In this document: positions 1,021-61,536 of the stretch, in pieces
Layout of the letters: the number at the start of each line of letters is the position of its first letter
Numbering within the stretch: the first letter of the stretch is position 1
Source of the DNA: Haliotis cracherodii
Taxonomy: Eukaryota
DNA length: 64,000 bases
Direction: 5' to 3'
Assembly: GCF_022045235.1 (NCBI RefSeq)
Contig: NW_027266286.1
Coordinates: forward strand, 1,255,856-1,319,855
Notes under the pieces: generated by a model
What the model saw: only the letters and a program-made list of their open reading frames with translations
Told to the model about the DNA's origin: nothing
Database searches by the model: none
Translations under genes and position numbers: made by a program

Positions 1021-3624
1021 CTTGGTCGTGAACGGAACCCTTGCATCCAAAGTTGATAGGTAACCTCGCAGAACCATGGTAGAAAACAGTTTCCTTGACA
1101 CACAGTCAGCCTTAGGCTAAACCAACAATAGTCTTGGTAAGGCACCGCCCGCATCATCATAAAGTCTGCCACAAGATTCGTTTCTATTTCCATTTCCAAC
1201 AAAAAAATAATTAAAAAATTAGCATTCTAACACTGAAAAACAAGCCGATACAATATTGCACACTGTTACTTCCCTTTACATGCGTATCTCGTGTTATGGT
1301 CAAGGAGTTTGTATCCTTGTCTATGTAGGGAGGCCCTTTCCCAGGTTGATGGTACACAACTGTTTATTTGGTTTCATGCTAGTTAGAACAAGCAAAAAAA
1401 ACACACAAAAAACACCCACCCATCCGCCTGCCCGCACTATATTTTCAAAAGTCATTGATCGAGAACCAAGTGTTTTATTATTGTAAGCCTTAAATGTCAT
1501 TGTTTCACAAAAGTTCCTGGTTCCAGACAGCATTTGCTTGGCATCATCTGAGTGATATGAAAAGATAGGTTGAGTGTTGTTTAGTCACCTCAGCTTGGGA
1601 CTGCTCCTTGGTTAAATGCCTCACATGTTGCAATGCTAATGTTTTGTCCCATTTGGGGAACAAAACAAACAAAAGGAAAAGGAAACAAACTAATATTGTA
1701 AATATGATCTTCAACCTTTCATTCATCAAAGTACAATCATTTAACTCTGACATACATGAAGAAACAAACTAGCAGTGGACCACTATACAACATAATATAC
1801 ATATGTGTATACCATACAATATCAATATTTATTACCCACGTGGTGAAGATACAGGTGGTAAGATACTAAATCCGTATGTCACACGTGTGTCGTACAAGGT
1901 TGACCTTGTTTTATTCGTTTTGATTGGATAACCGTGACCTCTGTCACACCGGGACTACTTTTTTCATTCATAAAAAATTGCGAGACATCATTCATTTTGC
2001 GATTACAAGGCAGAACTGAAGAAATTCATGAGAACGAGAGATATTTACAAACACTTTATTAAACCAAACAAGATAGTCACACGCATCAAATTGGTTTGCA
2101 TTCTATATAAGTTATGCATAGAGCTCCTACAGACATATAATCCAGCTAGATCTATAAATCGATTTACAATGTACGACTGCCGATCGAGCACGTCCCTTGA
2201 GCGTGACGCACCCGACCATTTTCGCAACTTTCAATTTGATTTAACGTAAAAGGATAAGCGTGGTGAAATGAAGTCTGTTTAAACTATCTGGACAGATATC
2301 TAGACTTACTTGGGATGATCCGGTTGTGCCATCGGTGTCCCTTTTGAAGCGTATTTTATGGCGCTGTTTCGGGAGGTGTTCATGAATGAACGAACACGAC
2401 AGCACGACCAGATCACTTAAAGTTCACAGTTCCAATACAAATCATTCTAAAACCACTTGGAAGTGCGCTTGACTTCTGATTTTGTGGTCCCAAACATCCC
2501 AAATGTGAACAGTAACATTCACTATCTCTAGCGTAAAACGCTGTGAGGGGATCGCGGTTGTCTTTTCTTATTGCGGTGGCGACCTTGCCCTTCAATCGTT
2601 CGAAGCTGTCACTGACATGCAAGCAGATTTGAGTTTGTTGATTTTCACGTCTTCAGTATAGGGTGGTACAGTTAACATGAATGTCTTTGGCGAACAGTCT
2701 GATTTCCCTCTTCCAAAATTGGACGGGCATGATATAAATTCAGCTGATAGATCAAGGAAACCGAACCATTTTGATTGCACAGACGGGACCCCGGCAGTGT
2801 GATGCGTGTGACTGTTGGTCCGACATTCAAAGCGCGGCGCTAATGTGACATTTCAATTTTTCTTATCGGTGTCCTGCGTACTAACAACATGGCGCTTGAA
2901 TTACCATAAGTTGAAGACTTTCTTCCAAAAGGATCTTGAGCGTCGGTGCTGGTTTGTTTGCAAACAGAACAGCAGGCGCATGTTGTTAATGCGTATGCAT
3001 AAACATGTCAACAATGCCCATATTTGGTCTTATATCAATATTCATGCGCAACCAGATTTTGCAACCGGTTTCAGTTTGGTCTGTCAATGAACGAAAGTTG
3101 TTATGTATTTACACTTAAATATATATTTAACGTGGGTAATAAATAAAATACTACACTCATTCTCGTTAGATACCATTTTTACGAAACTTGTGAACTTTCT
3201 ATGGTATCTGACCGATCGAATAGTATCGAACGAGAATGAGTGTAGTATTCTCTATGTCTCAATCACATCACATCATATCTTAAAACAGAAATGTCAAGAC
3301 TCACTCACTCACTCACTCACTCACATCGTCAATCTCATTACAATCAGATCCTTGTTCCAACTATCACTCCACAAATGTCTGAGGACTTCCTATTACGGAA
3401 GAATGACCTTTCCTCCAACAAATCAGAGAGTGACTCACCAGATCAGGAAAGTGAAAGTCGGAATGTGTTTTCAAATCATGCATCCTCAAAAATGTTAACA
3501 TGGCGTGTTCTGAACCACAGTTGCTGGCTGTACGACTGATTTTGTCAATTTCATCGCCTAACGCTCACCTCAATGAGATATATTTTGAAACGGAAGAGAC
3601 ATTCCATAGCCCATGAGAGTTAGT

Positions 3625-6049: not shown

Positions 6050-6320
6050 CTGAGTGAGTGAGTTGGGCTTGACGCCGCTTTTAACAGTATTCCAGTCACA
6101 GCGTGTCAGCTTAATGTGTGTGTAAAGCCGGAAGTGATGCAGGTCTCAGACGTTTACCACTTCTGTGAAACCCATGAGCACAGGTATGGTGCTGACAAAC
6201 CTAGAAACATAATCAGGGCGAACCGGGATTCAAACCCACATTCATAGGTTTCTGGCGTGCCCAAGGGACACAACTCTGCACAGCGAATAGTGGTGCCTTA
6301 GACGACTTGGCCACCTGGGC
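6050..6320 (-). mobile_element. SINE family B copy, about 280 bp. Long tRNA-like head GGGGGCACAGGTGGCCCAGTCGTCTAA..GGGTTCGAATCCCGGTTCGCCC on the minus strand, the same core as family A, (GAGT)n tail.
   Basis: Further copies at 16745-17020, 42480-42765 and 45900-46195 (all minus). Partial copies at 21035-21165 (minus), 19338-19400 and 51985-52095 (plus). Confidence 0.75.
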
Positions 6321-6534
6321 CCCCAGATAATAGGAGAATATGATAGAATGCTGTTAATCCAAACCAATCTAATGACAGTGTGACATTGAATGTGTTCTTA
6401 ATACACCCTGAACAGTATTTCACTCATACGCCAGTCAAAGAAAAGTACCACTGTTAAAAGCCCATGACTACGTGTGTCTAGCCAAGGGTCGTAATCAGGG
6501 ATGCAAACCCATGACCAGCAGATCCTGCTCCATT

Positions 6535-6835
6535 AGTCTTTTGTTTGTTTGTTGTTTAACGCCCACTCAGCAATATTCCAGCTATATGACGGCGGTTTGT
6601 TAAATAATCAAGTCAGGGCCTGACAATCCAGTGATTGACATCATGAGCATGATTCATGCAATTGGGATCGATGACATGCATCAACCAAGTCAGCGAGCCT
6701 GACCACCCGATCCCGTTAGTCGCCTCTTCAGACAAACATACTCTCCTTTTGTGGCTAGCATGGGTTGCTGAAGACCTGTTCTACCCGGGATCTTCACGGT
6801 TCTCCGGGTCAGTGAGTTGTGACAACCTATACCAC
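6535..6835 (-). mobile_element. Repeat family C copy, about 290 bp. (TTGT)n at its plus-strand start, core ..ctcagcaatattccagctatatgacggcgg.., internal duplicated gtcgcctcttacgacaagcat.
   Basis: Further copies at 11200-11445, 21880-22140, 32285-32545, 58475-58770 and 63935-64000 (same orientation), and 16245-16500 (opposite). Strand call assumes the (AACA)n-type run is a 3' tail. Confidence 0.6.
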
Positions 6836-7292
6836 TCGGCCTCTGCCGTGTTACGAAGAAGGAGCACAGACAAGGTCCTTCTTCCACAAGTATATCACAG
6901 CAACAGACAGACTCCCATCATAGACCAATGACAGTCGTATACAGCCTTATGATGGCATCGTGGACTGAGACCAGGATATTTACAGGGAGCTTCGGTGAAC
7001 CAGTGCACAGTTGCTTCCCCTTGGGCATGCCAGGAACCGAGGACCATTGGTTCGAATCTTAGATCTCGCCTTCTTGGCTTGTCAGCACCCGTGCTCGTGG
7101 ATTTCACCCAAGTAGTAAATGTCTAAGACCTGCATCACTTTGGGCTTTCTTTCCACATCAAACTGACGCACTGTGAAATTGCAGACAATTAAATATTCTT
7201 TTGTTTCTTTTAAGAAATATTGTATTGAAAATTCAGTTACATTATTCTCAAAACAAGACAATAAGACTCATGAACTGTTTGGAAACCGTTAC

Positions 7293-13465: not shown

Positions 13466-16400
13466 CTAAAACAAAAAATGATTAAAAAAGACCATTTGTC
13501 AAGCGCTATCTCCATGCACATAACATGCTCGAAGTACAATGATAATGGGCGATCTTTTTCAATTTATCTTCCCTTCACTAACCCGCTAGGTGCGCTGACC
13601 CGGACGGTCCAACCTTAAACTGACGGCGCATGTGGTATGCGCGATACGAGCACTACTTGTTACTGTGACACCTATAGACAGTTAACTAGTATAACCTTCA
13701 CCTTTGTCGGCAACGGTCACACTTGTGTGTGGACAGCATATCTTTTCGCCTAAACAATGATTTATCTATTGCCATGTCCGGAAATATATGTTCCTTGATA
13801 TAATTATACATCAGGGATGACCACGACTGATTATATTGTATAGTTAACCACTAGATAGGCGTTCGAAGCGATGCGGTGAAATCAGCAGATCGTTCATCCC
13901 AGGTCGCTTTGTTGACGTTTTGCAATCGGCACGGAAAGTGTTGCCCTTGATGTATGAATATGAAAATTAAGTAGATTTTGTATACGTTCCTATATCTATG
14001 TTGTAGCATCGCCGAGCAGGCTACATCATATGCATGCATTTCAGTATGTACAACGGTGAGGCGATACGGTTACGCGAAATGTGAAGGTCTTATGCAACGT
14101 AAAGTTGCCCGTAGCCTCAATGTTGTGAATATTGACAGCAAGACATGTAAGTATTTGTCAGATATATAACAGAGAGCTCTGGTATTCTTTCAGGTTTGCA
14201 GAATCAATCAATTCATTGTGAAAACATTTTTAATTTCTTACATAAGTTACTTTGATCTTGATTAGATCAAAATAGATACAAATTAAATTGAGAAGATTAA
14301 ATTATGCAGTCTTATTCATTTCAGCCAGTCTCTCTAAAATCCAATCCTATTTTTCAGGCAATAATAAATGAATGAAAATTTAAGAAAAAATATACCTTGC
14401 CTGAGTGAATCAGTCAATATGCACAGTGACTAAAATCTTCAGTCAATATACATATTGGGCCTGTTTATAGACACTGACTGTAACATATGTAAGTATAATC
14501 TGTTACATGCAAAAACAAATAACATAAATAAATCCATTTATCTACTTTGAATGAATGTGGGGTTCAATTTGCATTTATTTAACCATCAGAAGATTTGATG
14601 ATAAACTTTCATATTCATATTTTCATATAAAATTCATATTTGCTATATGATAATAATATCTACAAAATATACTTTATACTACAGGTGTCTTGAAGTACTG
14701 TTGAATGAAAATCAGGATACTTAGATACAGCAGGATAGTGTGTTGGTTTGTATGGGAAATAATTTGTCAACATTAAAATAGATACAATGTTACTAAAACA
14801 AGAAAATAAAACAATGATTAAGTTCTATTTATGCATCATACACATTTTGTGGGGTAGTCAGTATAATTTGTTGTTTTTTGGGACACATCTCTGTAATTAA
14901 TTACTATTTTAAGAGCATGAGTATCAGAATTCTGTAAGAAATGATGGATCAACTAATTAACACCTGTGATGACTCAGAGCACTTAATGGTGGGACGTCAC
15001 ATGTTATAAGAGGCAGAATAATATGGGTAAATCTCTTATTTCAATGTATGATGACTGGTATGTATATTGCAACTGAGTAACTGAGTGCTTAGATCTAATA
15101 GATGCATGGTAGATGTTCATTTGGCCTATTTCTAAAAAAATAATATAAATTCAAATATTCAGATGCAACTTTAATTTTGATCTTAAAAGTAACATTTAAA
15201 ATCAGTTGTTTTATTATTTTTAACATTATTTGTTCTTAAAATATTTGTAAAGGTGCAGATGAATACTTACTATATAGATCACTGGTTAAGGCCTGTCAAA
15301 GTTGTCTGTGTGCTGCAAATGTTTGCGTATCACTAATTTTATTAAATTGAAGTCCATGGTAGTATTTGTTGAGATATGAATGCTTGAATTCTTGTGGGAA
15401 ATAACACAAAGGCTGATAAATAAAATGAGTTTGCATTATTTCATCGATGCAATATGTTAGCCCTGACTGACAGAATGCCTCGCTGTTTTCTGACGTAGAA
15501 AATACATTGGCAATATACCATTTTTCATGACCTTTTTCCCGCTATATTCCAAAGTGACAATTCGTCTTGTAGATGAAGACTCAACAGATGTTGATATTAT
15601 AAACTAATAATCACTACAAAATATGTGCTAGTTAAAAATATTCAGTTGTAAACGACCGTTTTTGAACGAAGGTGCAACAGGATAACTCTTTAGCTTGGCT
15701 CCGTCTCTACATGTCAGTAGTTGACGCAGCGTGCATAGATCCGGGAACCAGACCGGAAGCGACAGTTCGGTCCATCGCTTATATCATTTCAATAGGAGAG
15801 TTATTGCCCTTTGGAACAAAAAGATCGCCCATTATAGTAAAAAAAAACATTCCTTTAGAGGACTCAATGATGTCACTATTAAACACATTTTAAATGGAAA
15901 AATTGCCAGTGATTTCATGACATTTGAATAGCCAACCAAGAACGCCACCATACCGTTGTCTACAGTTTTGTGTGTATTTATAACTAAATGAGCATTCTGT
16001 GATGTTATAACTGTTGATTTATTTATTCAAAAGAATTGACTTCAGTTTGTGTTTTTACAGTTATGGAGGTACAACCGTAAAACCTGATGTTTGCACAGTC
16101 TGCACATCGGTTTTTATGTTTATTGCTCCATAAAAGTAAAATGAGTTTAAGTCAATTCTTAAATATCTATCTACCTCTGATAACAATATCTAGTGAGTGC
16201 TGTCTCTATATAGCGGTAGAATGAGGTTGACCCGTGAAGATCCGGGGTAGAATAGGTCTTCAGCAACCCCTACTACTTGCCGTAAAAGGCGACTATGCTT
16301 GTCGTAAGAGGCAACTAACAGGATCGGGTGTTCAGACTCACTGACTTGGTTGATGCATGTCATCGATCCTAGTTACATGGATCGATGCTCATGATGTCAA

Positions 16401-19559: not shown

Positions 19560-20880
19560 ATCTGTTCACACAAGATATCTCAGTCAACATCTACACATGG
19601 ATATCTCAGTCAACATCTACACATGGATATCTCAGTCAACATCTACACATGGATACTGCCTACATCCACACAGGGATATTGCCTACATCTACACATGGAT
19701 ATTGCCTACATCTACACATGGATATTGACCTACATCTACACATGGATATTGACCTACATCTACACATGGGTATTGCCTACATCTACACATGGATACTGAC
19801 CTACATCTACACATGGATATTGACCTACATCTACACATAGATACTGACCTACATCTACACAGATACTGACCTACATCTACACATGGATATTGACCTACAT
19901 CTACACATGGATATTGACCCACGTCTACACATGGATATTGACCTACATCTACAAGATATTGACCTACATCTACACATGGATATTGACCTACGTCTACACA
20001 TGGATATTGACCTACATCTACACATAGACCTTGACTTTTATCTACACATGGATATTATCCTACAGTGTTAAAGGGGATCTGTGCTTCTCACTGTCAACAT
20101 CTACATATGGATATTATCCTACAGTGTTAAAGGGGGTCTGTGCTTCTCACTATCAACATCTACATATGGATATTATCCTACAGTGTTAAAGGGGGTCTGT
20201 GCTTCTCACTGTCAACATCTACATATGGATATAATCCTACAGTGTTAAAGGGGATCTGTGCTCCTCACTGTCAACATCTACATATGGATATTATCCTACA
20301 GTGTTAAAGGGGATCTGTGGTTCTCACTGTCAACATCTACATATGGATATTATCCTATAGTGTTAAAGGGGGTCTGTGCTTCTCACTGTCAACACCTACA
20401 TATGGATATTATCCTAGTGTTAAAGGAGATCTGTGCTTCTCACTGTCAACATCTACACATGGATATTATCCTACAGTGTTAAAGGAGATCTGTGCTTCTC
20501 ACTGTCAACATCTACACATAGACCTTGACTTTTATCTACATATGGATATTATCCTACAGTGTTAAAGGGGATCTGTGCTTCTCACTGTCAACATCTACAT
20601 ATGGATATTATCCTACAGTGTTAAAGGAGATCTGTGCTTCTCACTGTCAACATCTACACATGGATATTATCCTACAGTGTTAAAGGGGATCTGTGCTTCT
20701 CACTGTCAACATCTACACATGGATATTATCCTACAGTGTAAAAGGGGGTCTGTGCTTCTCACTGTCAACATCTACACATGGATATTATCCTACAGTGTTA
20801 AAGGGGGTCTGTGCTTCTCACTGTCAACATCTACATATGGATATTATCCTACAGTGTTAAAGGGGGTCTGTGCCCTAATT
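19560..20880. repeat. Compound satellite: a 24-bp unit (atctacacatggatattgacctac), about 20 copies at 19560-20040, then a 59-bp unit (..atggatattatcctacagtgttaaaggggatctgtgcttctcactgtcaacatctac), about 14 copies.
   Basis: Direct periodicity. The plus and minus ORFs at 19433-20886 are repeat artefacts. Confidence 0.9.
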
Positions 20881-22429
20881 AATTAATGCCATTGTTTGTG
20901 TGTCATCACTAACTGCCAGACATGATTCAATACACAAACAAACAAAGAAGCAGCACCTCCAATTTGCCTTTTTTAAGGACTTATGTTCATCTTTTGAAAA
21001 AAATCAATCAACCGGGTAATACTTTCCAAATAGGAACCTAAGGAACATAATTAGGGCGAACCGGGATTTGAACCCACAATCAGAGGTTTCTGGTGTGCCC
21101 AAGGGACACAACTCTACTCAGCAAATCGCGGCGCCTTAGACAACTGGGCCACCGTGCCCCCCATTCAGTCAAAGAGAATGTACAGCATTAATGCCCTGTT
21201 CTGTAGGCCCTGGGTTTTAGGACTGCCATGCCTGAGATAGTCATGGAACCTCCACAGGCAAACACTTTTCCGTTAACGTGTGATAAACTGTTTTACTTTC
21301 TGACATTCTTAACGCAAAATGCCCATGTATTGCTTTTAAACCTTGTTTAACGGTGAATATTGATGAAACTTTAGAATTAAATCCAGGGAAGGATGTAGAT
21401 CATAATAAAAAAATGTGTTTTATGATTTTCAACACTGGCCATTATACAGGGAACACCTTAGGTCACAGCATGAATCTCTTGAGAGTATATTTGTCTATTT
21501 GTTTTTAAACACCACACTCAGCGACATTCCATAAACAGTGTTGTGTAAAAATCTTGAATTACTAGAAAAATCATGATAGGAGCAAAATATCATTACCGTG
21601 CTTTGCCAAAGGAAACGATGACTCTTCCTGGAAAGAAAATCAGTAATTATGGAAACATTCAATTTTCTCTTAACTTACAATTGAATCTCAGATTCTAAGT
21701 GGCTGAGACCCATTCTATTAGTTTCAATGTACCCCGCTAACATGTAAGGTATATTTCTTAAGTTCCCCGCTCGAATTACTAAACTGCTGACATAACATTT
21801 GCAACATGCCAACTGCTATTCCGTATCTTGAATTAATGATGTAAGACGAAATTTCTCAAAAGCAGTATGACTGTTCTGTTCTGTTTGTTATTTAACGCCC
21901 TACTTAGCAATATTCCAGCTATATGATGGCGGTCTGTAAATAATCGAGTCTGGACCAGACAATCCAGTGATTGACATCATAAGCATCAATCCACATAATT
22001 GGGTTACAAACAAGTCAGCTAGCCTGACCTCCCGATCCTGTCAGTCGCCTCTTACGACAAGCATAGTCGCCTCTTACGACAAGCATGGGTTGCTGAAGAC
22101 CTATTCATGCCCGGATCTTCACGGGTCAGTATAACTGTAAGAAAATATAACAACTGTAAAAGAGGCTTGATTGAGTGAGTTTGAATGGGCAGTGATGAAC
22201 GAAGATGGGGGGACTCTGAATTATTTTGTACTGTCTTCCATAAATAATAACTGAGAACATATAAACCTCAACAGGTCAAGTGAAAATACTGCAGAACGAG
22301 GACAAAATATTATCTGCTTGTCCTGCAGGGCACGTACGGTTTAAGACATTCTAAGAGCCCTGGTGTTACTGTTAGAAACATTTCACCAGGAATAAGGGAC
22401 CAATCTCTTGTCCTCCATATCATGTGATA

Positions 22430-23045
22430 CAGGTTTCCTACACAGAGTTGTCCCAAACAAACAACATGTAACCAGCCTGGATGGCTAGGTTCCCGACACA
22501 GAGTTGTCCCAAACAAACAACATGTAACCAGCCTGGATGGCTAGGTTCCCGACACAGAGTTGTCCCAAACAAACAACATGTAACCAGCCTGGATGGCTAG
22601 GTTCCCGACACAGAGTTGTCCCAAACAAACAACATGTAACCAGCCTGGATGGCTAGATTCCCGACACAGAGTTGTCCCAAACAAACAACATGTAACCAGC
22701 CTGGATGGCTAGGTTCCCGACACAGAGTTGTCCCAAACAAACAACATGTAACCAGCCTGGATGGCTAGGTTCCCGACACAGAGTTGTCCCAAACAAACAA
22801 CATGTAACCAGCCTGGATGGCTAGGTTCCCGACACAGAGTTGTCCCAAACAAACAACATGTAACCAGCCTGGATGGCTAGGTTCCCGACACAGAGTTGTC
22901 ACAAACAAACAACATGTAACCAGCCTGGATGGCTAGGTTCCCGACACAGAGTTGTCCCAAACAAACAACATGTAACCAGCCTGGATGGCTAGGTTCCCGA
23001 CACAGAGTTGTCACAAACAAACAACATGTAACCAGCCTGGATGGC
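22430..23045. repeat. 58-bp minisatellite, about 10.5 units (ggttcccgacacagagttgtcccaaacaaacaacatgtaaccagcctggatggcta).
   Basis: Direct periodicity. Confidence 0.9.
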
Positions 23046-23793: not shown

Positions 23794-24417
23794 CTGGCAA
23801 ATGACACAAAGGTTACCTCAGTCAAAACTTTACTTGTTCCAAGTTAAATTGACTGTCCAAGTCCACCAATATCAGACCCCAGAACGGTAACAAAATTGTC
23901 CCACACCCCTCTTAAGAGAAACAAAAATGGGACGATCTAGACAGACATTACGCCAATGTCAAACATGGCCACAGAATCTGCAGCAATTCTGCCAAGCTCT
24001 TCCAGCAGATTGAACAGCGATTCCACAAGATGTCAATTACAAGCTTCTTGGTTCCATGGGCAAGATGTGTCGAACTGTATGGCTGACTAAAAACTACTTT
24101 GTCTCAAACAAAGCTCCATAGTTCACCCATAATAGTAAACGGTTGGCCCCTGGATCCACTGAGGCCATAATTGTAACATTTAGATAACTGTGTGAGTGAA
24201 TGAAGTTTTTACTAGGTCTCCAGTGAGCACATGGTCTATACAGGAAGTTAGATGGGAGTAGGCTCCCTTAGATACTAGTAATACATGCACTGTCTAACAA
24301 CTGTGCCCAACACATTTAATTACCTATGAATTTCTACTGAAGTTATGCCAATTACAATTCTATAAGTACCTGAAACTACATTGCTTACTACTTATTTAAT
24401 TCAAAGAAAATACTCAC

Positions 24418-24519
24418 CTCATCTCTGGTTTCTATGGCAACAAAGCTGGTGAACTGAGTAACGATGGAGTACTGCTTGCTCAGGTCAATCACATAATTCT
24501 TCAGATTCTGTTTCAAAAT
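24418..24519 (-). CDS. PARP4: PARP4-like exon 25 (ILKQNLKNYVIDLSKQYSIVTQFTSFVAIETRDE).
   Basis: Acceptor tgttgtag|ATT, donor GAG|gtgagt. Human has MKKQTLKSLIIKLSKENSLITQFTSFVAVEKRDE. Confidence 0.9.
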
Positions 24520-25120
24520 CTACAACATATAATATTTGTCTTTGCTCAAGTTTGGGAAGAATTTCCGCACAAATTAGACAGGCGAAAGCAGCGGCCATAA
24601 AGCAGCAGCTGGATGTTGATCTTGTAAAACATTCTCTGATTGGACTATCAATATGTGCAAAAGTCCTATCCCAAGGGAGTCTGTTCTAGCACAGAAAAGT
24701 CGGCTTGAATGGGAGAGGGTGAAAAATAGACCTTGATAAAGGCGAGTGAACACTCTTGCCTTGAGAAGATGAAAGACATGTACACCTACAACAAAAGAGC
24801 TCTCCAGTGTATTTTCTTGTGTTATTAACAAGTCTTCTTAATGTTTCCAAAGTAAAACCATAATGTTCCTTAAAAAATGCAGTTTGACTTTTTGTGAAAT
24901 GTTAAATATCAAGAGGATCGTCCATAAATTTCCCTCAAAACAACTCTAATAGCATCATCTATTGTGCCTCATGTTTCTTTCCATATTCACAAAGAAATCA
25001 GTGAGAAAAATTAAACTGGTTTGGCTTTACAATGATTTGAGATGGGCTCAAAATATTAAACTAATTAGTTAATTTTTTCAGTTTTGCTGAAATGTAGTGA
25101 CAGTGCATCTTAAGACCGAC

Positions 25121-25201
25121 CTCGTGCTGGGTGCGATCTGCTGACAGCACTCCATCCTCCCAGTCCCGTATCAGGGCTCGCGCCGTGAGGCGGTGAACGA
25201 T
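25121..25201 (-). CDS. PARP4: PARP4-like exon 24 (IVHRLTARALIRDWEDGVLSADRTQHE).
   Basis: Acceptor cttgattacag|ATC, donor GAG|gtcggt. Human has MIHKLAARALIRDYEDGILHENETSHE. Confidence 0.85.
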
Positions 25202-25598
25202 CTGTAATCAAGACATAGAATGGTCAGATGATACCAGGTAAAGATGTTTTTCATTGTCGGGATACCAACAACACGTTGCATTAAGATTCTGGATCACTGG
25301 TCCAAAAAAGGGAGGCATCTCTGCACAAAAAAAGTTGCTTCTAAAGACTTTTATTTTATTTGATTGTGACATATGATAAATGATAATAATAAACAATACA
25401 ATAGTAACAGAAAAAGTAACTGTGCTTCATATAAAGTAGTGTAAATGTTATGTTATTAAAAATAACAACATAGCATTTGGTCATTAGTCTGATCAATGTT
25501 TTATAATAACAACTTCATTGACAAAGCACATTCTTAATGTCAGTTCTTAAATGAACAATTAAATTGTTTATCCAAATATCCCACAAGGAATAACATAC

Positions 25599-25682
25599 AT
25601 TGGGCCCTGTGGTCTCGATGGTCATTGCTTGCAATGGAACAAGCTGATTCAATTCAGAATGTTGTACAAATTGCAGCACCAT
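25599..25682 (-). CDS. PARP4: PARP4-like exon 23 (MVLQFVQHSELNQLVPLQAMTIETTGPN).
   Basis: Donor AAT|gtatgt is strong. The acceptor ..cgccag|ATG is weak, with a purine-rich upstream. Placement is by position and phase between exons 22 and 24; similarity to human LCALIQEKEFRTMVSTTELQKTTGTM is loose. Confidence 0.5.
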
Positions 25683-26827
25683 CTGGCGTTGGTTATTGTC
25701 AACATTGTCTTTAGCATCCTTTCGTGAGTTTTTTCTTTCATGTGGCTTCTATTTGATTTGTATTTTGACCTTTATTAGTAACATTTAATTTCTTTTTTCG
25801 TAAAATTTTAGTATTACTACAAACTTTTCATCTTTATTAAAACTGATGTATTGTTTTACCAAATGACCACCAATGAAAACCCATATCTGGTAACTCAAAT
25901 AACAACGTCATTATTGGGTGTGACCACAATTTGTCTTGATACAGGTGATGCATTGAAGACACCAGCTGGTTCTGGTCCTGTTGTAGGGGTCGTTCTATCT
26001 CATCCCAGGCATGTTCCATTGGGGAGAGGTTTGGAGAAACAGCCAAAATTGCAGTACAGCAATGTTATGCTGCCTCAAAAAGAGTCTGTTACAACACGTG
26101 CACTGCGTGGGTGGGCATTATCCAGCTGCAATGCGACGTAAGTCCCTGCATTTGCACAAAGGGTTTGTGATGGCACCCCATACCATCACACTATCACCCC
26201 AAAACTAATGATGTTGACTAAAGCAACTGTTGCTAAAATTTTCCCCTGGGCGCCTGTAGACCTTTGCACGACCATCACCATGTCCAGATAAAACTCATCT
26301 GTGACCAGAATACTGTCTCAGTCTTTACTTCTGAAAATCAGATTTTGTCTACACCAAGCTAGGCGTGGCTGACGGTGATGTGGAGGCCAAACTGGGCATA
26401 TCGGTGGGCATCAGGGCCGGATGTTGTGCTCCCTCAGCCGGAGCTAAGTATCAATCCCTAACCCTAACGAGAAATTGTCCTGGCTTTTAATGTGGCAGTT
26501 TGGTGTCAATTCTGGACAATCAAATATGGTTGTCTTGTTGACATGACGTCAAATGTGGATAACCGGCTCGTTGCAAGGCATGAGTTTTGCCCTGTTGGAG
26601 ATAATGTCTCCAAAAAGATGATATTGTGTTTTGATGAATATCAAAATGTCTGGCAACTTTGTTTTCGCTATTCGTGTTTGCAGCAAACCCACGGCATGTA
26701 AACATTGATTTTCAGCATGCCTTGACATTGTGCAAGCATAATTTACATTATTTACAGGTAAACAAAGCATTTCATGAGAACCTGACAGCTAAACAATCAT
26801 TGTGATCTGTTCACTTAACAAACAACA

Positions 26828-27620
26828 TGTGTGAGTATCAAGCCCCTATCTCACATACACGATTTAAGAAATTGCGAACACGATTTAAGAAAAGTTGAAA
26901 AATCGTGTTGATTCGTGCTCGAACTTCTTAATTTCTTAACCAAACAAGACCCTCATACGACCAAAAACAACCCTCCGATGACCCTAATACGACCTTTATA
27001 CGAGTGAACACGACACCCATACGACCGTCATAAGATATTCATACAAAACAACACGATTTAACTTCATTTAACACGACCCCAATACGACTGCCATACAACC
27101 AAACACAAATGACATACGATGCCCCTATGACTTAATAAGAATCAACACGACCGCCATACGATTAAACCCGAATCATTACGATTTCCATTCGACTACAAAA
27201 ATAAACATGATCTCCATACGACTGAGCAAGACCTTCATACGACATATTTTTGTTTATTTTGGTCACGTGGGACATGTAGTATATAAGCTGCATTACAACA
27301 GCATTCCTGTGTCAGTCTTCACTGGCGATTTTGGTGGTGGTTCAGAGGTTTCAGCTGGCTCATCTTGTCCCATGGTTGGTTGTGAAGGATGTTTCCCTTT
27401 CGAAGATTTTGCTTGAAGGAGCTTCCGTTTCGGCCGCCTGAGGTTTGGCATGGCTGTAGAATGAGCTTTCACTTTCAGGGGGTTTCCCACGTTCTCACTC
27501 AGTCACACGAATGAACACGCATGAGTGCACGACCTTCATACGTTCTAACACGATTTAAGGAAAAACGTTAAATCGTGTTCATTCGTGTTCAGATTCATGA
27601 ATGTGAGATAGGGGCTTCAA
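26828..27620. mobile_element. MITE-like non-autonomous DNA transposon, about 790 bp. Terminal inverted repeats caagcccctatctcacat (26829-26846) and atgtgagataggggcttg (27601-27618). Subterminal cacgatttaag repeats. Degenerate internal catacgac repeats.
   Basis: Perfect 18-bp TIRs found by reverse-complement comparison, with subterminal direct repeats at both ends. No coding capacity beyond short ORFs. Confidence 0.65.
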
Positions 27621-29859
27621 GCTCCCACAAAACACGCAAACATCCAAATTGTGCACCATTCTTTAACATGCAAATGGTGAATTATGACCTCAAAGTCGAG
27701 GAGATGTCTTCATGAATATGTATTGAAACATGCATTATTTAATTTTCAAACAAATTTTTAGTCAAATTTATATTGAAGCACAGTTACTTTTTGCCGTCAG
27801 TATATATATGATATTGATACATTCATTTACATTCAATGTTTAAATAATGAACACATGTCTGTCTGACAGTTTGTTAATTACAACACAGTCTGAACTTCAT
27901 GTTTATGGCTCTCAATCAAATTGCATTAATATCTCTTACCAATCCAGTTGTGATGCTGAGGTCAGAGGTCGACACGACCGTGGACACTTCTTGTCCTCCA
28001 ACAACAGCTTTCAAGGTCGCCTACATTGAAACAGTCACAATCATATTGGATGTTCATTTGCTTGTTGTTAGCAAAGCACTCGGAAATATTCTAGCAACAA
28101 TAGAAGAAGAAGATTCATCATCATTCTATAGACAATAACGTACGAGTGACAACGTATGACAGATTATCTGTCCCGAGTGAAATGAATGTTGTTAGTCCCG
28201 AGCCTTGGCAAACTTTCAACATTAATTTTACAAGGGACAGATAATCCATCATTCCTCGTCACGAGTAGTTTATTGTTTTTATTACCCATCATCAAGTCCT
28301 AAATAAGAAGCTAAAAAGACAAGAAACATTTTACTCTTAAGACAGAGGCGAGGTCGTATTTCATATTCCTATGCATGTAAAACAGCATCAATCTCATGGA
28401 ATTTTACCTGATCACATACAGTCTTTGCTCAACATTAAAATTCAGCATATGCGAAATATTTCATTTGAGCAGCAATAATTCAGCAATATAATGAATTTTG
28501 TTGATAAACATACATTTTGATTCCTGTATAATAGTACAACAATGAATTAAAAATGACTTGTCATTATTGTTGATACAAAACTCAAACACATGTTGACATG
28601 TTCTATCAGTCGCCTCAACGTCACAAGCTCTCACGATACGAAAACAAAAACAAAACTTTTACCGGTCTTCGCTTTCTCAACAACAAGCTGTGTAAACTGA
28701 TTTTCCATCAGGCAATGTTTATTTGACAGACTTAAAAGTGAGCATACGTCTTACTTTTTGAAACAACAGTCAATGTCTTTGTCTTTCGATCTTTCGCCAA
28801 ATTCATAGAATTTGTTTCATACTGTGACTACGATATTGTTTCACAATAAGGTATCCCGATATTGTTTTTACTCTTCCTGGAATGTCTTGCATTTAGTTTT
28901 AATGAGGGATGTGTCGACTCTAAAACAGTTCAATGGCGATATTTTGTTCCACAATTCTACCAAACAAATTTCCGTCAATCTTCAAAAGATCATTCACTTT
29001 TATAGGGGATTGGAATGTTGACGTTGTTTACCTGCAGGATAGCAGATGATTTAGTCAATCAAATTTACAGTAATTAGTTTGTATGTGTGAGCCATAGAGG
29101 CGTTACGATTCACTCACGTATTCGGTGAATCCAACCGTATGCATTCATGAATTCAATTCGTTATTCGTGGCAACTTGAATTGATTATTTATGAATATGCA
29201 ATCATGTGCATTTACATTCCCTGTACCTAAAAATATCCATAAGAACAAATGATATGCATAGATTTCTTGAAAGACAACACTCTTATCATTTTTAATTTGA
29301 CAGGAATGTGGTCAATGGTCATTGTCGGTTTTGAGCAGATACTAGTACCTGATAAGTGCAGTATATAAATGTATAGTATTTTAATAATTAACCAACCATG
29401 TCAAATAATTTATGTTGCTATTGTTTCACTGAATATAACAAATAATACATCAACTGCTGACTTGTTATTGTATTCGCGAATTAATATTCGTATTTGTTAC
29501 TCTATATTAGTGATACGAATCATATTCGCCTCATAGTGTATTCATTGCAGCCCACATTTTATTTGGATTAATAAAAAATATACTTTTAGAACACCTTATG
29601 CTGAAGACTATAACTGACAAATCTCATGTGGCAGAATCTTGTTTGTGGAAAAAGATGGATGAACATGGTGAATGGGAAAAAGTAGTTCCGGCAAACACCA
29701 TTAACCAATGAAGTTACAGGAAAACAGCCAATCAGCATTAAGCCACTCCGGGGCAGTGGTGACTTAGCATAACACCACATATCACGTGACGGGACTTTTC
29801 TCTTGTTTATAAACAAACACGCTTTTTCAGAAATCAGAATACAATGGACTAATGCAAGT

Positions 29860-30350
29860 ATTTGGGGGACAGTGGCCGCATGGATCTCTGGGTAGGACAG
29901 TGGTCACATGGATCTCTGGGTAGGACAGTGGCCGCATGGATCTCTGGGTAGGACAGTGGCCGCATGGATCTCTGGGTAGGACAGTGGCCACATGGAGCTC
30001 TGGGTAGGACAGTGGCCGCATGGATCTCTGGGTAGGACAGTGGTCACATGGAACTCTGGGTAGGACAGTGGTCACATGGAACTCTGGGTAGGACAGTGGC
30101 CGCATGGAACTCTGGGTAGGACAGTGGTCACATGGATCTCTGGGTAGGACAGTGGCCACATGGAACTCTGGGTAGGACAGTGGCCGCATGGAGCTCTGGG
30201 TAGGACAGTGGCCGCATGGAACTCTGGGTAGGACAGTGGCCGCATGGAGCTCTGGGTAGGACAGTGGCCGCATGGAACTCTGGGTAGGACAGTGGCTGCA
30301 TGGATCTCTGGGTAGGACAGTGGCCGCATGGAACTCTGGGTAGGACAGTG
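29860..30350. repeat. 30-bp minisatellite, about 16 units (gtaggacagtggccgcatggatctctgg), ending about 75 bp from PARP4-like exon 22.
   Basis: Direct periodicity. ORFs at 29827-30415 are artefacts. Confidence 0.9.
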
Positions 30351-30423
30351 GGAGGTGACAGGAGAACTGTGCAGCTCCCTTCCCCTATGGGTATATAACA
30401 TAGTAACACACACATCTACCTAC

Positions 30424-30594
30424 CATGGTGCAGTTCGGCACCAGTCCATACACAACTTGACGTGAGCCGTTGAACAGAGCTGTGATCTGCCGTGGTGCTT
30501 GTGGCAATGTTGCTGCATCGTTGTCAAACTGTTGCCACTCAACTGCCACGGAGGTCAGCCCCGGTTGGGAGGCCTTACTGATCTGAGACTTCAC
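30424..30594 (-). CDS. PARP4: PARP4-like exon 22 (VKSQISKASQPGLTSVAVEWQQFDNDAATLPQAPRQITALFNGSRQVVYGLVPNCTM).
   Basis: Acceptor cccctgaacag|GTG, donor ATG|gtaggt. Human has IEDQMTRLCSPSCHSVSVKWQQLNPDVPEALQAPAQVPSLFLNDRLLVYGFIPHCTQ. Confidence 0.85.
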
Positions 30595-51954: not shown

Positions 51955-52494
51955 GTTGCCCTAGCTGAAGCAGACGTGATTACAGCCATCAGTACACATC
52001 TTCCTCATCCTACAGAGGGCACGAGTGGCCCAGTCAGTGGTGCTGCAATTTGCTGTGCAGAGTTGCGTCCCTTAGGCACGCAAGACACCCATTACCATAT
52101 TCACTGTAATAAGCGTCCTGCGCTTTTATTAAAACCGTAAGAAATGTGTTAAATTTGTTGTCTGTCATTAAGCCGTAAAGAACAAACATGCTTCAAATGA
52201 AACTGAAACGTTTGTGATAATAACTACAAGGCTATTGTATACCCTTAGTCAGTCATATCGAGTTCCAAGTTTAGCAAGAGGGACTTATAATGATCACTTA
52301 CAGATTGGTGTAAAAGTTGGACAGGGGGCACTTAATGGGGCGGGGTGCTTAATAGAGTGAATATGGTATCATGGGTTCGAATCCCAGAATCACTCGTATT
52401 GTGTTTCTAGGCTGGTCAGCAGCATATCCGTGCTTGTGGGTTTCACTACAGTGGTAAATATCTAATATCACTTTTAGCTCTCCTCCCACATGAA

Positions 52495-55400
52495 GCTGAC
52501 AAAGGTCAGGTAGTATGTAGAGTCTATTGTATGTAGAATCTGTAGTATGTAGAGTCTGTAGTATGTAGTATGTAGACTCTATAGTATGTAGTATGTAGAC
52601 TCTGTAGTATGTAGAATCTGTAGTATGTAGAGTCTGTAGTATGTAGTATGTAGAGTCTGTAGTATGTAGTATGTAGAGTTTGTTGTATGTAGAGTCTGTT
52701 GTATGTAGAGTCTGTAGTATGTAGACTCTGTAGTATGTAGAATCTGTAGTATGTAGAGTCTGTAGTATGTAGTATGTAGAGTCTGTAGTATGTAGAGTCT
52801 GTAGTATGTAGTATGTAGACTCTGTAGTATGTAGAATCTGTAGTATGTAGAGTGTAGAGTCTGTTGTATGTAGAGTCTGTAGTATGTAGAGTTTGTAATA
52901 TGTAGAGTCTGTAGTATGTAGTATGTAGAGTCTGTAGTATGTAGAGTCTGTAGTATGTAGAGTCTGTAGTATGTAGTATGTAGAGTCTGTAGTATGTAGA
53001 CTGTAGTATGTAGTATGTAGAGTCTGTAGTATGTAGTATGTAGAGTCTGTAGTATGTAGACTCTGTAGTATGTAGTATGTAGAGTCTGTAGTATGTAGTA
53101 TGTAGACTGTAGTATGTAGACTCTGTAGTATGTAGTATGTAGAGTCTGTAGTATGTAGTATGTACACTGTAGTATGTAGTATGTAGTATGTAGTCTGTAG
53201 TATGTAGTATGTAGAGTCTGTAGTATGTACTATGTAGACTGTAGTATGTACTATGTAGAGTCTGTAGTATGTAGTATGTAGAGTCTGTAGTATGTACTAT
53301 GTAGACTGTAGTATGTACTATGTAGACTCTGTAGTATGTAGTATGTAGAGTCTGTACTATGTAGAGTCTGTAGTATGTAGTATGTAGAGTCTGTACTATG
53401 TAGAGTCTGTAGTATGTAGTATGTAGAGTCTGTAGTATGTAGAGTTTGTAGTATGTACTATGTAGACTGTAGTATGTACTATGTAGAGTCTGTAGTATGT
53501 AGTATGTAGAGTCTGTAGTATGTACTATGTAGACTGTAGTATGTACTATGTAGACTCTGTAGTATGTAGTATGTAGAGTCTGTACTATGTAGAGTCTGTA
53601 GTATGTAGTATGTAGAGTCTGTACTATGTAGAGTCTGTAGTATGTAGTATGTAGAGTCTGTAGTATGTAGAGTCTGTAGTATGTAGTATGTAGAGTCTGT
53701 AGTATGCACTATGTAGACTGTAGTATGTACTATGTAGAGTCTGTAGTATGTAGAGTCTGTAGTATGTACTATGTAGACTGTAGTATGTACTATGTAGAGT
53801 CTGTAGTATGTAGTATGTAGAGTCTGTACTATGTAGAGTCTGTAGTATGTAGTATGTAGAGTCTGTACTATGTAGAGTCTGTAGTATGTAGTATGTAGAG
53901 TCTGTAGTATGTAGTATGTAGACTCTGTAGTATGTAGTATGTAGAGTCTGTAGTATGTAGTATGTAGACTGTAGTATGTAGAATCTGTAGTATGTAGTAT
54001 GTAGAGTCTGTTGTATGTAGAGTCTGTAGTATGTAGTATGTAGAGTCTGTAGTATGTAGTATGTAGACTGTAGTATGTAGAGTCTGTAGTATGTACTATG
54101 TAGAGTCTGTTGTATGTAGAGTCTGTAGTATGTAGTATGTAGAGTCTGTAGTATGTACTATGTAGACTGTAGTATGTACTATGTAGAGTCTGTAGTATGT
54201 AATATGTTGAGTCTGTAGTATGTACTATGTAGACTGTAGTATGTAGTATGTAGACTCTGTAGTATGTAGTATGTAGAGTCTGTAGTATGTAGAGTGTAGA
54301 GTCTGTTGTATGTAGAGTCTGTAGTATGTAGTATGTAGAGTCTGTAGTATGTACCATGTAGAGTCTGTAGTATGTAGAATCTGTAGTATGTACTATGTAG
54401 AGTCTGTAGTATGTACTATGTAGAGTCTGTAGTATGTAGAGTCTGTAGTATGTACTATGTAGACTCTGTAGTATGTACTATGTAGAGTCTGTAGTATGTA
54501 GTATGTAGAGTCTGTAGTATGTACTATGTAGAGTCTGTAGTATGTAGCATGTAGAGTCTGTAGTATGTAGAGTCTGTAGTATGTACTATGTAGAGTCTGT
54601 AGTATGTAGTATGTAGACTCTGTAGTATGTAGTATGTAGAATCTGTAGTATGTAGAATCTGTAGTATGTACTATGTAGAGTCTGTAGTATGTACTATGTA
54701 GAGTCTGTAGTATGTAGTATGTAGACTCTGTAGTATGTAGTATGTAGAGTCTGTAGTATGTACTATGTAGACTCTGTAGTATGTAGAATCTGTTGTATGT
54801 AGAGTCTGTACTATGTAGAGTCTGTAGTATGTACTATGTAAAGTCTGTAATATGTAGTATGTAGAGTCTGTAGTATGTACTATGTAGACTCTGTAGTATG
54901 TAGAATCTGTAGTATGTACTATGTAGAGTCTGTAGTATGTACTATGTAGAGTCTGTAGTATGTAGTATGTAGACTCTGTAGTATGTAGTATGTAGAGTCT
55001 GTAGTATGTACTATGTAGACTCTGTAGTATGTAGAATCTGTTGTATGTAGAGTCTGTACTATGTAGAGTCTGTAGTATGTACTATGTAGAGTCTGTAATA
55101 TGTAGTATGTAGAGTCTGTAGTATGTACTATGTAGACTCTGTAGTATGTAGAATCTGTAGTATGAAGAGTCTGTAGTATGTAGAGTCTGTAGTATGTACT
55201 ATGTAGAGTCTGTAGTATGTAGTATGTAGAGTCTGTAGTATGTACTATGTAGAGTCTGTAATATGTAGTATGTAAAGTCTGTAGTATGTACTATGTAGAA
55301 TCTGTAGTATGAAGAGTCTGTAGTATGAAGAGTCTGTAGTATGTACTATGTAGAGTCTGTAGTATGTAGTATGTAAAGTCTGTAGTATGTACTATGTAGA

Positions 55401-55855
55401 GTCTGTAGTATGTACTATGTAGAGTCTGTAGTATGTACTATGTAGAGTCTGTAGTATGTACTATGTAGAGTCTGTAGTATGTAGTATGTAGACTGTAGTA
55501 TGTAGAGTCTGTAGTATGTAGTATGTAGACTGTAGTATGTAGACTGTAGTATGTAGTATGTAGACTCTGTAGTATGTAGTATGTAGACTCTGTAGTATGT
55601 AGAGTCTGTAGTATGTAGACTGTAGTATGTAGACTCTGTAGTATGTAGAGTCTGTAGTATGTAGTATGTAGACTGTAGTATGTAGTATGTAGAGTCTGTA
55701 GTATGTAGTATGTAGACTGTAGTATGTAGACTGTAGAATGTAGTATGTAGAGTCTGTAGTATGTAGTATGTAGAGTCTGTAGTATGTAGTATGTAGAGTC
55801 TGTAGTATGTACTATGTAGAGTCTGTAGTATGTACTATGTACTATAGTCCTATTG
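52495..55855. repeat. About 3.3-kb satellite array of variable 21-30-bp units built from gtagtatgtagagtctgtagtatgtactat, located 0.5 kb upstream of the PARP4-like start codon.
   Basis: Direct periodicity. ORFs at 52349-54357 are artefacts. Confidence 0.95.
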
Positions 55856-56239
55856 CAATTAAATACATTTGGAATTTGAGCAGTCCTATAAAGTTTCTAT
55901 CAAGTCATAAAACAAATTTCATCTCTCTGCTTTAACACATGGTATTATTTTTATCAATCTAGCAGTTACCAATTCCCCTCAGTTTGTAGTGCCAATGTCT
56001 TGACCCAGACTTGCACCATAGAGCCTTGTCCCTCTGTGTTTCCTGCACGACCATGTTTCCCTACTAGAAGCCCTGTACCTACAAGCTGCTTCTGACAAAC
56101 AAGCCAGGTCAGGCAAAGAGGAAATGAATGATCCTTTTCAGACACCAAATAATGAAGTTCACCAGTGCTGCACTGTGCATGAAGAACGAGACAACGGGTG
56201 TCAAACAAACATTCCTTATAGTGTGCCAAGAAACAATGT

Positions 56240-59300: not shown

Positions 59301-61536
59301 GACTCCACGCCCTGCTACACAGACACAGAGATCAATAGAGAACTATTACAGGCCAAGCCAGTGACCAACCCAGACACAAACTGAGGCCTGAATGAACATA
59401 ATAACACCGGAATACCTTTATATATAGCTGCACAAATAAGAAATAGAGATATTGAGTGATGTATCCTACAAGGCGGAAGGCAGTGCGTAAGCAGATAATG
59501 TCTCTACATTTTTTTCTTTGCTTTTTGTCACAGCTACGTATTCCTGTGATGATACGGAGACAAAATGTATGTTTCCATTGGCCACTGTTGGCCGATGCAT
59601 GATTTGCTTCTTTTATGAATTTGTGACACAGCATGGCAGAATGTATGACATTTATTGTTGGTGTTAGATTTGCTGAGCTGACTTGTATGAGAACCGTAAC
59701 ATGAATTTGAGAGGGGAGGGTGTACGTCATGATTCATATAGCTGTGTATATACATTGCTCAATACATCATGCAGCTTCTCAGGAAGAGAATTTATGGATG
59801 TCAACTTCTTTATTATGAGGAACACAACGTTTACTGATTAGTGTTGGCTTCCATTTGTCCACTGCTAATCACCTATCAGCGCCAATTATCTGTTGACTTC
59901 CTTGTTAAGTTCAAGCTTTGTTACCTTATTCCATTTGTTGTTCTTAAAATTACAGGTAAATTTTATATATATGTATTTGTTTTCTGCCTCATGGCATTTT
60001 TCACCTGATGAAGGAGTAAGTATATACTCCAAAGCGTTGTGTTCTTCATAATAAAGAAGTTGACATCCATAAATTCTCTTCCTTATGTGTATCACTTCTA
60101 AATGCCTTTCAAAGACTTGATCAGCTTGTATATTGCTCTCTGTGAGAGCGGTTGGGCAACGTATGAACACATTGGAGCTGTTATCGGGCATTTCTCACTA
60201 TTTAAAACTACAAAGGAGATTTCTAATAACAATATATTATTTGATAGTCATAAGTACTAAAACTGATCGTCAGCATATTTCACCTATTGACTTAGATTCT
60301 ACTTCCTATTCCGGAAGGCGAATCTACATTGGAGACTGCTAGAGAAAGTTGTTTATACCTGCTGAATTCCCAACATTCACAATGTCATGTGATACAAAAG
60401 CAGATATATGTTACTGACTGTAGAACAATACCTTTTTTGTCGATGAACAAGTTAAAAGCTAATTGCTTTCATCAAACAACTGCATCATAAGATACCACTT
60501 CATCGAAGCTTCATGCGTAAACATGCTATACATAGTAACATAGTCGATACATACTCCGCTACAGCACTAACAATGTGGTGCAGTGGCATATGTTAATCGG
60601 TTGCCGAACCCTTTTACGCCCCCGAATCCCGGCAGGGAGTTTACATGTATTAACTAATGAGAAAAAAGCATACATTTACTCCGCTATGTACCTTTCAAAA
60701 TGGCGTCTTCTTCAAAGACGAAGCATGGTGATATTGACTGGCTTTATCCTGAATTACTGACGAAAGATGGACTTCTGTATATACTTGAGCAGGTGAAGAT
60801 ATGCGGTTGTGCTTTTATGGCATCTTTAAGTTATCTTTTCCGTTTGCCAATCCTTCTGTGTTAAGGAGACATGAAAAGTTACGCGTGTCGAGAAATGTGC
60901 CATGATCGGTGTGGCTCACACCTTCCAAACATTGCATCAGTCTGGGTAGGCTGAGATCATGTCAGATGTAGGTCTTGGGCTTATACACGAACGTCGATCT
61001 TCTAGGAAGATGGGCGGGCGACCTTGCTTAATGTGGCCTAAGCAATCCAGTTGTAAGCAAGAACTCGGAATGAAGTTGGACCAAGAATTAGTTCGTCTCA
61101 ACTGACAATAATGAGTACTGCATTTACCACTTTTCCTTGTTTACCAGTTGCGCTTTAGTCCCACTTTTAAGATTCAAATTAGGGGAAAGGTGCACTTTTC
61201 AGGGTACAAGACAGTTGGGCAGGTGACCCATAAGTGTTGCCTGCCCATCTTCAAAGTTACCGGCACGCATTCAGACATTCTAAATATTGAAAAATCGCGA
61301 AAAAAGTAGACACACATAGCATCTGGATTACGTTGAAATAATGCAAAACCATCACTTTAGAATCTACAAGGAGTTATGAGTAAGGAATACGTAAGTAGTC
61401 TTAAAATCATCTCCCAGATAGTCAGGCAGGTATAGGAACAATTTATGCAGGAGCACCTTTAGAATACAGTACCACAACTTCTTGTGAGGACGATCTCTGC
61501 CGTAGGTCACATGTCTCAAGACAAGCAACCAGTTTT

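Follow-up and report, generated by a model that had tools for sequence, protein, structure and literature searches.

Positions 26840-27617 of the window, by which we mean the whole 64,000-nucleotide stretch of DNA analyzed here, very probably hold one copy of a non-autonomous class II cut-and-paste DNA transposon family bounded by terminal inverted repeats (TIRs), as judged from sequence comparison. We found two independent insertions, one in the window and one at a locus of ENA assembly ERZ26222911, that lie in unrelated flanking DNA and share exactly the same fixed ends, indicating that the element is mobile and upholding the initial annotation in its description of a TIR-bounded, non-coding, mobile element. 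The label "MITE" given there is borderline: the TIRs and the lack of coding capacity agree with it, but the 778-bp copy derives from a 1267/1291-bp form, which makes a small, homogeneous size doubtful. With two loci found and a parent form of 1.27 kb, the label stays unproven.

Ends of the element and its second insertion

The element and its ends are placed as follows:

26840..27617, plus strand: probable 778-bp copy of a non-autonomous TIR DNA transposon, an internally deleted derivative, delimited by homology to L011 and L012 (the two contig loci of the second insertion)
26840..26856, plus strand: left TIR, AAGCCCCTATCTCACAT, with identical sequence in L011 and L012
27601..27617, minus strand: right TIR, perfect reverse complement of the left TIR, identical in L011 and L012

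A perfect TIR of 18 bp had been reported at these ends. The repeat itself is real, but it measures 17 bp (AAGCCCCTATCTCACAT at 26840-26856 and its exact reverse complement at 27601-27617), since the "c" at 26839 needs a "g" at 27618 and meets a "c" there. The limits first given to the element, 26828-27620 (about 790 bp), start 12 bp too far to the left and end 3 bp too far to the right when set against the second copy: homology between the window and L011/L012 covers exactly 26840 to 27617, and the sequence beyond is unrelated (BLAST). The inverted repeat is non-random, with chance ruled out by both shuffles and simulations. Matches to the TIR 17-mer at three or fewer mismatches are expected 0.22 times in shuffled sequence, which never gave two, and the window has two with no mismatch; furthermore, 100 Markov-1 simulations of the window produced no perfect inverted repeat of at least 17 bp within 3 kb, and the real window has such repeats at five places.

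Immediately outside the TIRs, the Tc1 sequence that flanks the insertion is inverted-complementary at 8 of 12 positions (26828-26839 versus 27618-27629, TGTG.GAG / CTC.CACA). This 12-bp imperfect extension of the inverted repeat on each side (TGTG...CACA, 26828/27629) is, by comparison with the second copy, host Tc1 sequence, because the similarity of that copy to the window is confined to 26840-27617. A partly palindromic target site around the element could reflect either chance or a target preference.

The second insertion was recovered by a full phmmer search (1.84 billion representatives) with a 65-aa minus-strand open reading frame (ORF) of the element, which retrieved P0026, a protein of 228 aa that is 89% identical over the ORF and whose 90% cluster has one member. 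The ends of P0026 translate the element's own CATACGAC repeats ("VVWRSCS..."), so we regard it as the product of an ORF prediction that ran across another copy of the element. It is encoded on two contigs of ERZ26222911 (L011 and L012), and the copies at these loci are 85-94% identical to the window copy (BLAST). The flanks of L011 and L012 are the same, being 99.7-100% identical over 300 bp per side, and we accordingly count the two as a single insertion locus, present as alleles or as a recent duplicate.

With respect to its surroundings, the L011 insertion is nested in a different small TIR element (about 190 bp, CAGGGGCCCGTTTCAC) that is not a Tc1. This host, with TIRs CAGGGGCCCGTTTCACTAAG / CTTAGTGAAACGGGCTCCTG, lies at 9590-11050 in L011 and at 9580-11065 in L012, and a different element with the same TIR start is present near position 5028 of L011. 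An empty site for the L011 insertion was sought by way of the roughly 190-bp host, and no other host copy was found in the sequences examined.

Two readings that dispense with a TIR transposon can be weighed against these ends. The unit might not be mobile at all and might instead be a chance or local inverted repeat, a fragment of a segmental duplication or a part of the surrounding Tc1, which would agree with its single copy in the 64-kb window and with the lack of a clean duplication common to both loci; we consider this very improbable, given the complete absence of 17-bp inverted repeats from the simulations and the recurrence of the same ends in unrelated flanks of another assembly, and the Tc1 has separate TIRs of its own and, with the 778 bp subtracted, comes to about 1.6 kb, the length usual for it. 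A solo LTR is hardly credible at all; an LTR retrotransposon would have left it at 26828-27629, with TG...CA ends and short inverted termini, a TATA box in its interior and CAACA/AAACA as a 5-bp duplication. The imperfect inverted match does reach TGTG...CACA at 26828/27629, four of the five flanking positions match and TATATAAG lies inside the element, but the second copy places the real ends at AAG...CTT rather than TG...CA, and no LTR-retrotransposon sequence is found nearby.

Returning to the TIR transposon, we searched for further copies and for an autonomous partner. The rest of the window holds no other copy of the element, nor do four loci of 20 kb and a contig of 1.3 kb (about 80 kb together) taken from assemblies with relatives of the PARP4-like gene, and exact-pattern TIR scans of metagenome contigs and viral contigs yielded nothing. 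Eight matches to the 17-mer in prokaryotic metagenome-assembled genomes were rejected as chance, none of them having the subterminal motif. A Micrarchaeota metagenome-assembled contig (L006) has the 17-mer twice on the same strand (6640-6656 and 7250-7266), 610 bp apart and without the subterminal motif; the pair is probably a direct repeat of that contig's own, unrelated to the element. Likewise, no longer element with these TIRs, as an autonomous partner would be, was found in the scanned metagenome and viral contigs or in the fetched loci, and a full-text literature search for TIR and subterminal k-mers returned only two chance matches of primer type.

Internal anatomy, coding capacity and age

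Between its TIRs, the window copy is built as follows:

26857..26920, plus strand: left subterminal block with two ACACGATTTAAG repeats (26857 and 26878) and a small hairpin (AACACGATTT / AAATCGTGTT, 26877-26909)
26955..27243, plus strand: array of 14 same-strand, CpG-rich ACGA-core motifs (CATACGAC / AACACGAC), phased at 10.5 bp
27260..27504: unique central segment, GC 0.49, with TATATAAG at about 27283 and a 65-aa low-complexity ORF (minus strand, 27490..27293)
27305..27323: deletion junction, with about 120 bp of the L011/L012 copies missing in the window
27505..27506: deletion junction, with about 365 bp missing in the window, which in L011/L012 comprise a block of inverted motifs, another ACGA array and a palindrome (stem about 34 bp)
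27505..27600, plus strand: right subterminal block with ACACGATTTAAG (27548), a hairpin with 12-bp arms (27547-27579) and a 15-bp perfect inverted pair (27505-19 / 27574-88)

The long copies at L011 and L012 measure 1267 and 1291 bp, are non-coding and differ from each other by 11- to 13-bp units. Their left part runs from the 17-bp TIR through two ACACGATTTAAG repeats and a small hairpin into the roughly 19 ACGA-core motifs of array A (CATACGAC / AACACGAC); the middle is made up of a unique central segment, poor in CpG, and a short inverted-motif block; and the right part begins with the roughly 15 motifs of array B, followed by a palindrome (stem about 34 bp), a ACACGATTTAAG hairpin and the TIR. 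In addition to the two large deletions, the window copy is without a further 24 bp beyond the 27305/27323 junction, and its central segment is 97-100% identical to the L011 copy outside the two deletions. With about 500 bp lost relative to the 1.27-1.29 kb form, the window copy is thus read as a deletion derivative.

The ACGA motifs of arrays A and B have the same orientation in the long copy, and both arrays show a period of 10.5 bp. Phasing of the window array reaches a Rayleigh R of 0.86 at 10.5 bp, with 0.81 as the maximum among 2000 random position sets, and Tandem Repeats Finder reports a period of 11 for the same array; the 10.5-bp phasing may reflect nothing more than a degenerate tandem repeat of 10 + 11 bp. 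Exact copies of ACACGATTTAAG stand at 26857, 26878 and 27548, and one-mismatch copies at 27051 and 27567 (minus strand). These five matches, versus 0.25 expected, confirm the subterminal cacgatttaag direct repeats that had been noted earlier, whereas the AT-rich interior described along with them is not found: the GC content of the element (0.42) equals that of the window, with 0.38 in the left part and 0.49 in the middle.

Repeat-containing MITE-like elements of invertebrates are TIR elements with internal short tandem arrays. The element appears to resemble this class in its TIRs, its lack of coding sequence and an internal short degenerate array that varies in unit number between copies, but differs in that its repeat unit is very short (10-11 bp) and CpG-centered.

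Coding capacity was examined through the two internal ORFs of the element, of 65 and 69 aa. Neither has a match in Pfam and neither is on record by exact look-up; a word-indexed protein search with the 65-aa ORF gave nothing, and its only real relative by phmmer is P0026, which has no Pfam match of its own. The earlier statement that the element has no transposase therefore stands on two internal ORFs that have no Pfam match, the 69-aa ORF having been checked by Pfam and exact look-up only. Rfam and tRNA scans returned nothing relevant.

The window as a whole has the composition of animal-type genomic DNA (GC 0.42, CpG observed/expected 0.49). The element departs from it with a CpG observed/expected ratio of 1.14-1.19 overall and 1.82 in its left part, the highest of any 800-bp stretch of the window; the ratio in the surrounding Tc1 is 0.44. 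Between the window and L011 copies, divergence amounts to 3.9% at non-CpG sites and 16.7% at CpG sites, and this low non-CpG divergence, coupled with a higher CpG divergence, indicates a fairly young family that is decaying mainly by CpG loss. The comparison points to fairly recent activity of this DNA transposon family in the lineage.

Nesting in a Tc1 relic within a PARP4-like gene

The element is inserted directly into a degraded Tc1-like transposon, which is in turn intronic; this nesting is absent from the initial annotation. The features concerned are these:

25402..27802, minus strand: insertion host, a degraded Tc1-like element with TIRs at 25411-25465 and 27739-27792 (about 55 bp) and frameshifted transposase remnants at 25837-26705
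27936..28033, minus strand: upstream flanking exon of the PARP4-like gene, conserved in DNA (80%) and protein with the colinear locus L009, AG/GT splice sites visible
25119..25189, minus strand: downstream flanking exon of the PARP4-like gene, conserved with L009

Identification of the host as a Tc1 rests on the nearest database relatives of its stitched ORF, which are 44% identical and carry the Tc1-type domains PF01498 and PF13358; the stitched ORF itself is too decayed to give a Pfam hit. The Tc1 alone, minus the 778-bp insertion, measures about 1.6 kb, as is usual, and its two ends do not align past about 90 bp. The order of nesting is clear from the state of the two sequences: the element inserted into an already decayed Tc1, because the host is frameshifted and CpG-depleted, while the element keeps its CpG and shows only 3.9% non-CpG divergence. 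A paralogous empty site was sought via the host, and no other copy of this Tc1 was found in the window or in the fetched loci, the closest relatives being those 44% identical.

The PARP4-like intron named in the initial annotation is borne out by a minus-strand gene whose upstream exons have Pfam matches to BRCT, the PARP catalytic domain and VWA_3, which is the PARP4 domain order, and whose exons flanking the insertion are conserved with L009 (ENA ERZ25071447). A third exon, at 24412-24489, is likewise conserved with L009 in DNA and protein. The intron that holds the insertion measures 2746 bp in the window versus 964 bp in L009.

Several other repeats were observed in the window. A 303-bp unit at 59781-60083 has 38-bp perfect TIRs (AGGAAGAGAATTTATGGATGTCAACTTCTTTATTATGA) and the flanks ...cttctc / tatgtg..., and its size and the quality of its TIRs make it a stronger MITE candidate than 26840-27617. 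At 13542-15835, an 18-bp perfect inverted repeat (ATAATGGGCGATCTTTTT) has arms spanning 2294 bp and a raised CpG observed/expected ratio; this stretch is unrelated to the Tc1 at 25.4-27.8 kb and may be another TIR element. A 21-bp perfect hairpin pair at 3147-3249 (span 103 bp) and perfect inverted repeats of 16 bp at 1826-3145 and 15 bp at 6132-7140, which span 1.3 and 1.0 kb, may be further small TIR elements, since simulated sequence gives almost none. Long minisatellite arrays are located at about 52000-56000, 19850-20900, 29800-30450 and 22300-23000, within introns of the PARP4-like gene or adjoining it, and the array at 52-56 kb shows a GC skew of +0.45 to +0.51 and repetitive pseudo-ORFs on both strands.

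Target site, superfamily and mode of movement

With a slash marking the edges of the 17-bp TIRs, the flanks read gtaTC/AAGCCCC...GGGGCTT/CAagc in the window and gagTT/AAGCCCC...GGGGCTT/AAgac in L011. Two duplication models were compared at these sites, the first of them with its candidate copies in the window:

3-bp duplication model, ends AGCCCC...GGGGCT: TCA/TCA in the window (perfect), TTA/TAA in L011
4-bp TTAA duplication model, ends GCCCC...GGGGC: TCAA/TTCA in the window, TTAA/TTAA in L011 (perfect)
26838..26840: left copy of the candidate TCA duplication, its last base overlapping the first base of the 17-bp TIR (element then taken as 26841-27616, with a 16-bp TIR)
27617..27619: right copy of the candidate TCA duplication

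No boundary gives a perfect duplication at both loci, the window and L011. A target-site duplication had been named as a check in the initial annotation, and its outcome is divided: the window offers a perfect TCA/TCA, but the second locus, with TTA/TAA, fits TTAA better. All four flanks at the two loci read T-N-A. We prefer the 3-bp model over a strict TTAA because one change is more plausible than two at a copy divergence of about 4%.

Three other classes of element were considered and rejected. For Tc1/mariner (Stowaway-like) elements, the flanks TC/../CA and TT/../AA contain no TA duplication, and the TIR is unrelated to that of the host Tc1; for hAT, no 8-bp direct match exists at any TIR-compatible boundary. 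Helitrons and Helentrons have 5'-TC...CTRR-3' ends, lack TIR-defined ends and insert at A/T or T/T without a duplication, and the element has AAGC...GCTT ends with symmetric TIRs and the flanks TC/CA and TT/AA.

As to superfamily, PIF/Harbinger-like is our leading guess, a tentative one drawn from two insertion sites. Non-autonomous PIF/Harbinger elements have TIRs of 14-50 bp, 3-bp TTA/TAA duplications, subterminal tandem repeats and deletion derivatives of 0.8-0.9 kb (PMC2213677, PMC9179366). Like such elements (Tourist-like MITEs and internally deleted derivatives), the element has short TIRs, a candidate 3-bp duplication with T and A at its outer positions, subterminal arrays, a size in keeping with 0.8-0.9 kb derivatives and no transposase of its own. 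It differs from them in that the candidate duplication is TCA here rather than TTA/TAA and the second locus has an unequal TTA/TAA, in that the sequences examined contained no partner encoding an IS5-like DDE transposase together with a Myb-like ORF, and in that the arrays at the two ends are direct and not inverted. Furthermore, the TIR reads (A)AGCCCCTATCTC, without the G(N)5GTT motif found at the TIR start in plant PIF lineages (PMC2213677), a motif that is of plants and may not apply to animals.

The termini of piggyBac elements are usually CCC...GGG. A non-autonomous TIR transposon of a TTAA-inserting superfamily, piggyBac- or Kolobok-like, with GCCCC...GGGGC ends and a duplicated TTAA, is possible but in our view rather unlikely. 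It shares with such elements the short TIRs and the TTAA at the second locus, where the L011/L012 insertion has a perfect TTAA/TTAA under these boundaries, and both Kolobok and piggyBac produce TTAA-specific 4-bp duplications, Kolobok being common in marine invertebrates and having 5'-RR...YY-3' termini (PMC9587614). However, the window flanks are TCAA and TTCA rather than the TTAA of piggyBac, which requires two independent substitutions in 8 bp even though the copies are only about 4% diverged (non-CpG), and the termini then become GC...GC, neither the RR...YY of Kolobok nor the CCC...GGG of piggyBac. An RR...YY terminus (AG...CT) holds here only with the 3-bp boundaries.

Under the class II transposon reading preferred here, the element would be mobilized in trans by a DDE-type transposase encoded elsewhere. 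After binding to the 16-17 bp TIRs, this enzyme would cut the element out and insert it anew at a T-N-A (or TTAA) target opened by a short staggered cut; a PIF/Harbinger-like system would leave a 3-bp T-N-A duplication. The phased ACGA arrays and the ACACGATTTAAG hairpins are putative binding sites for the transposase or for an accessory DNA-binding protein, but the direct orientation of the ACGA arrays at both ends of the long copy counts against a symmetric (inverted) layout of transposase-binding sites. A transposase lineage with unusual target handling (T-N-A/TTAA-ambiguous or without duplication), for which the 10.5-bp-phased, CpG-centered ACGA arrays would be more than a degenerate tandem repeat and serve as a dedicated loading platform for an undescribed, sequence-specific and possibly methylation-sensitive accessory protein, strikes us as improbable.

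The element is an ordinary component of an animal genome and not a new kind of system; its family may already be catalogued in repeat libraries, and in its present place it is most likely inert intronic DNA. In practical terms, modeling of the PARP4-like gene calls for masking this stretch as a nested transposon, with a non-autonomous TIR element lying in a Tc1 relic. The four-fold faster decay of CpG inside the element offers a small, clean read-out of methylation-driven mutation. An autonomous partner of the family could be worth finding; otherwise, the significance of the element lies mainly in annotation.
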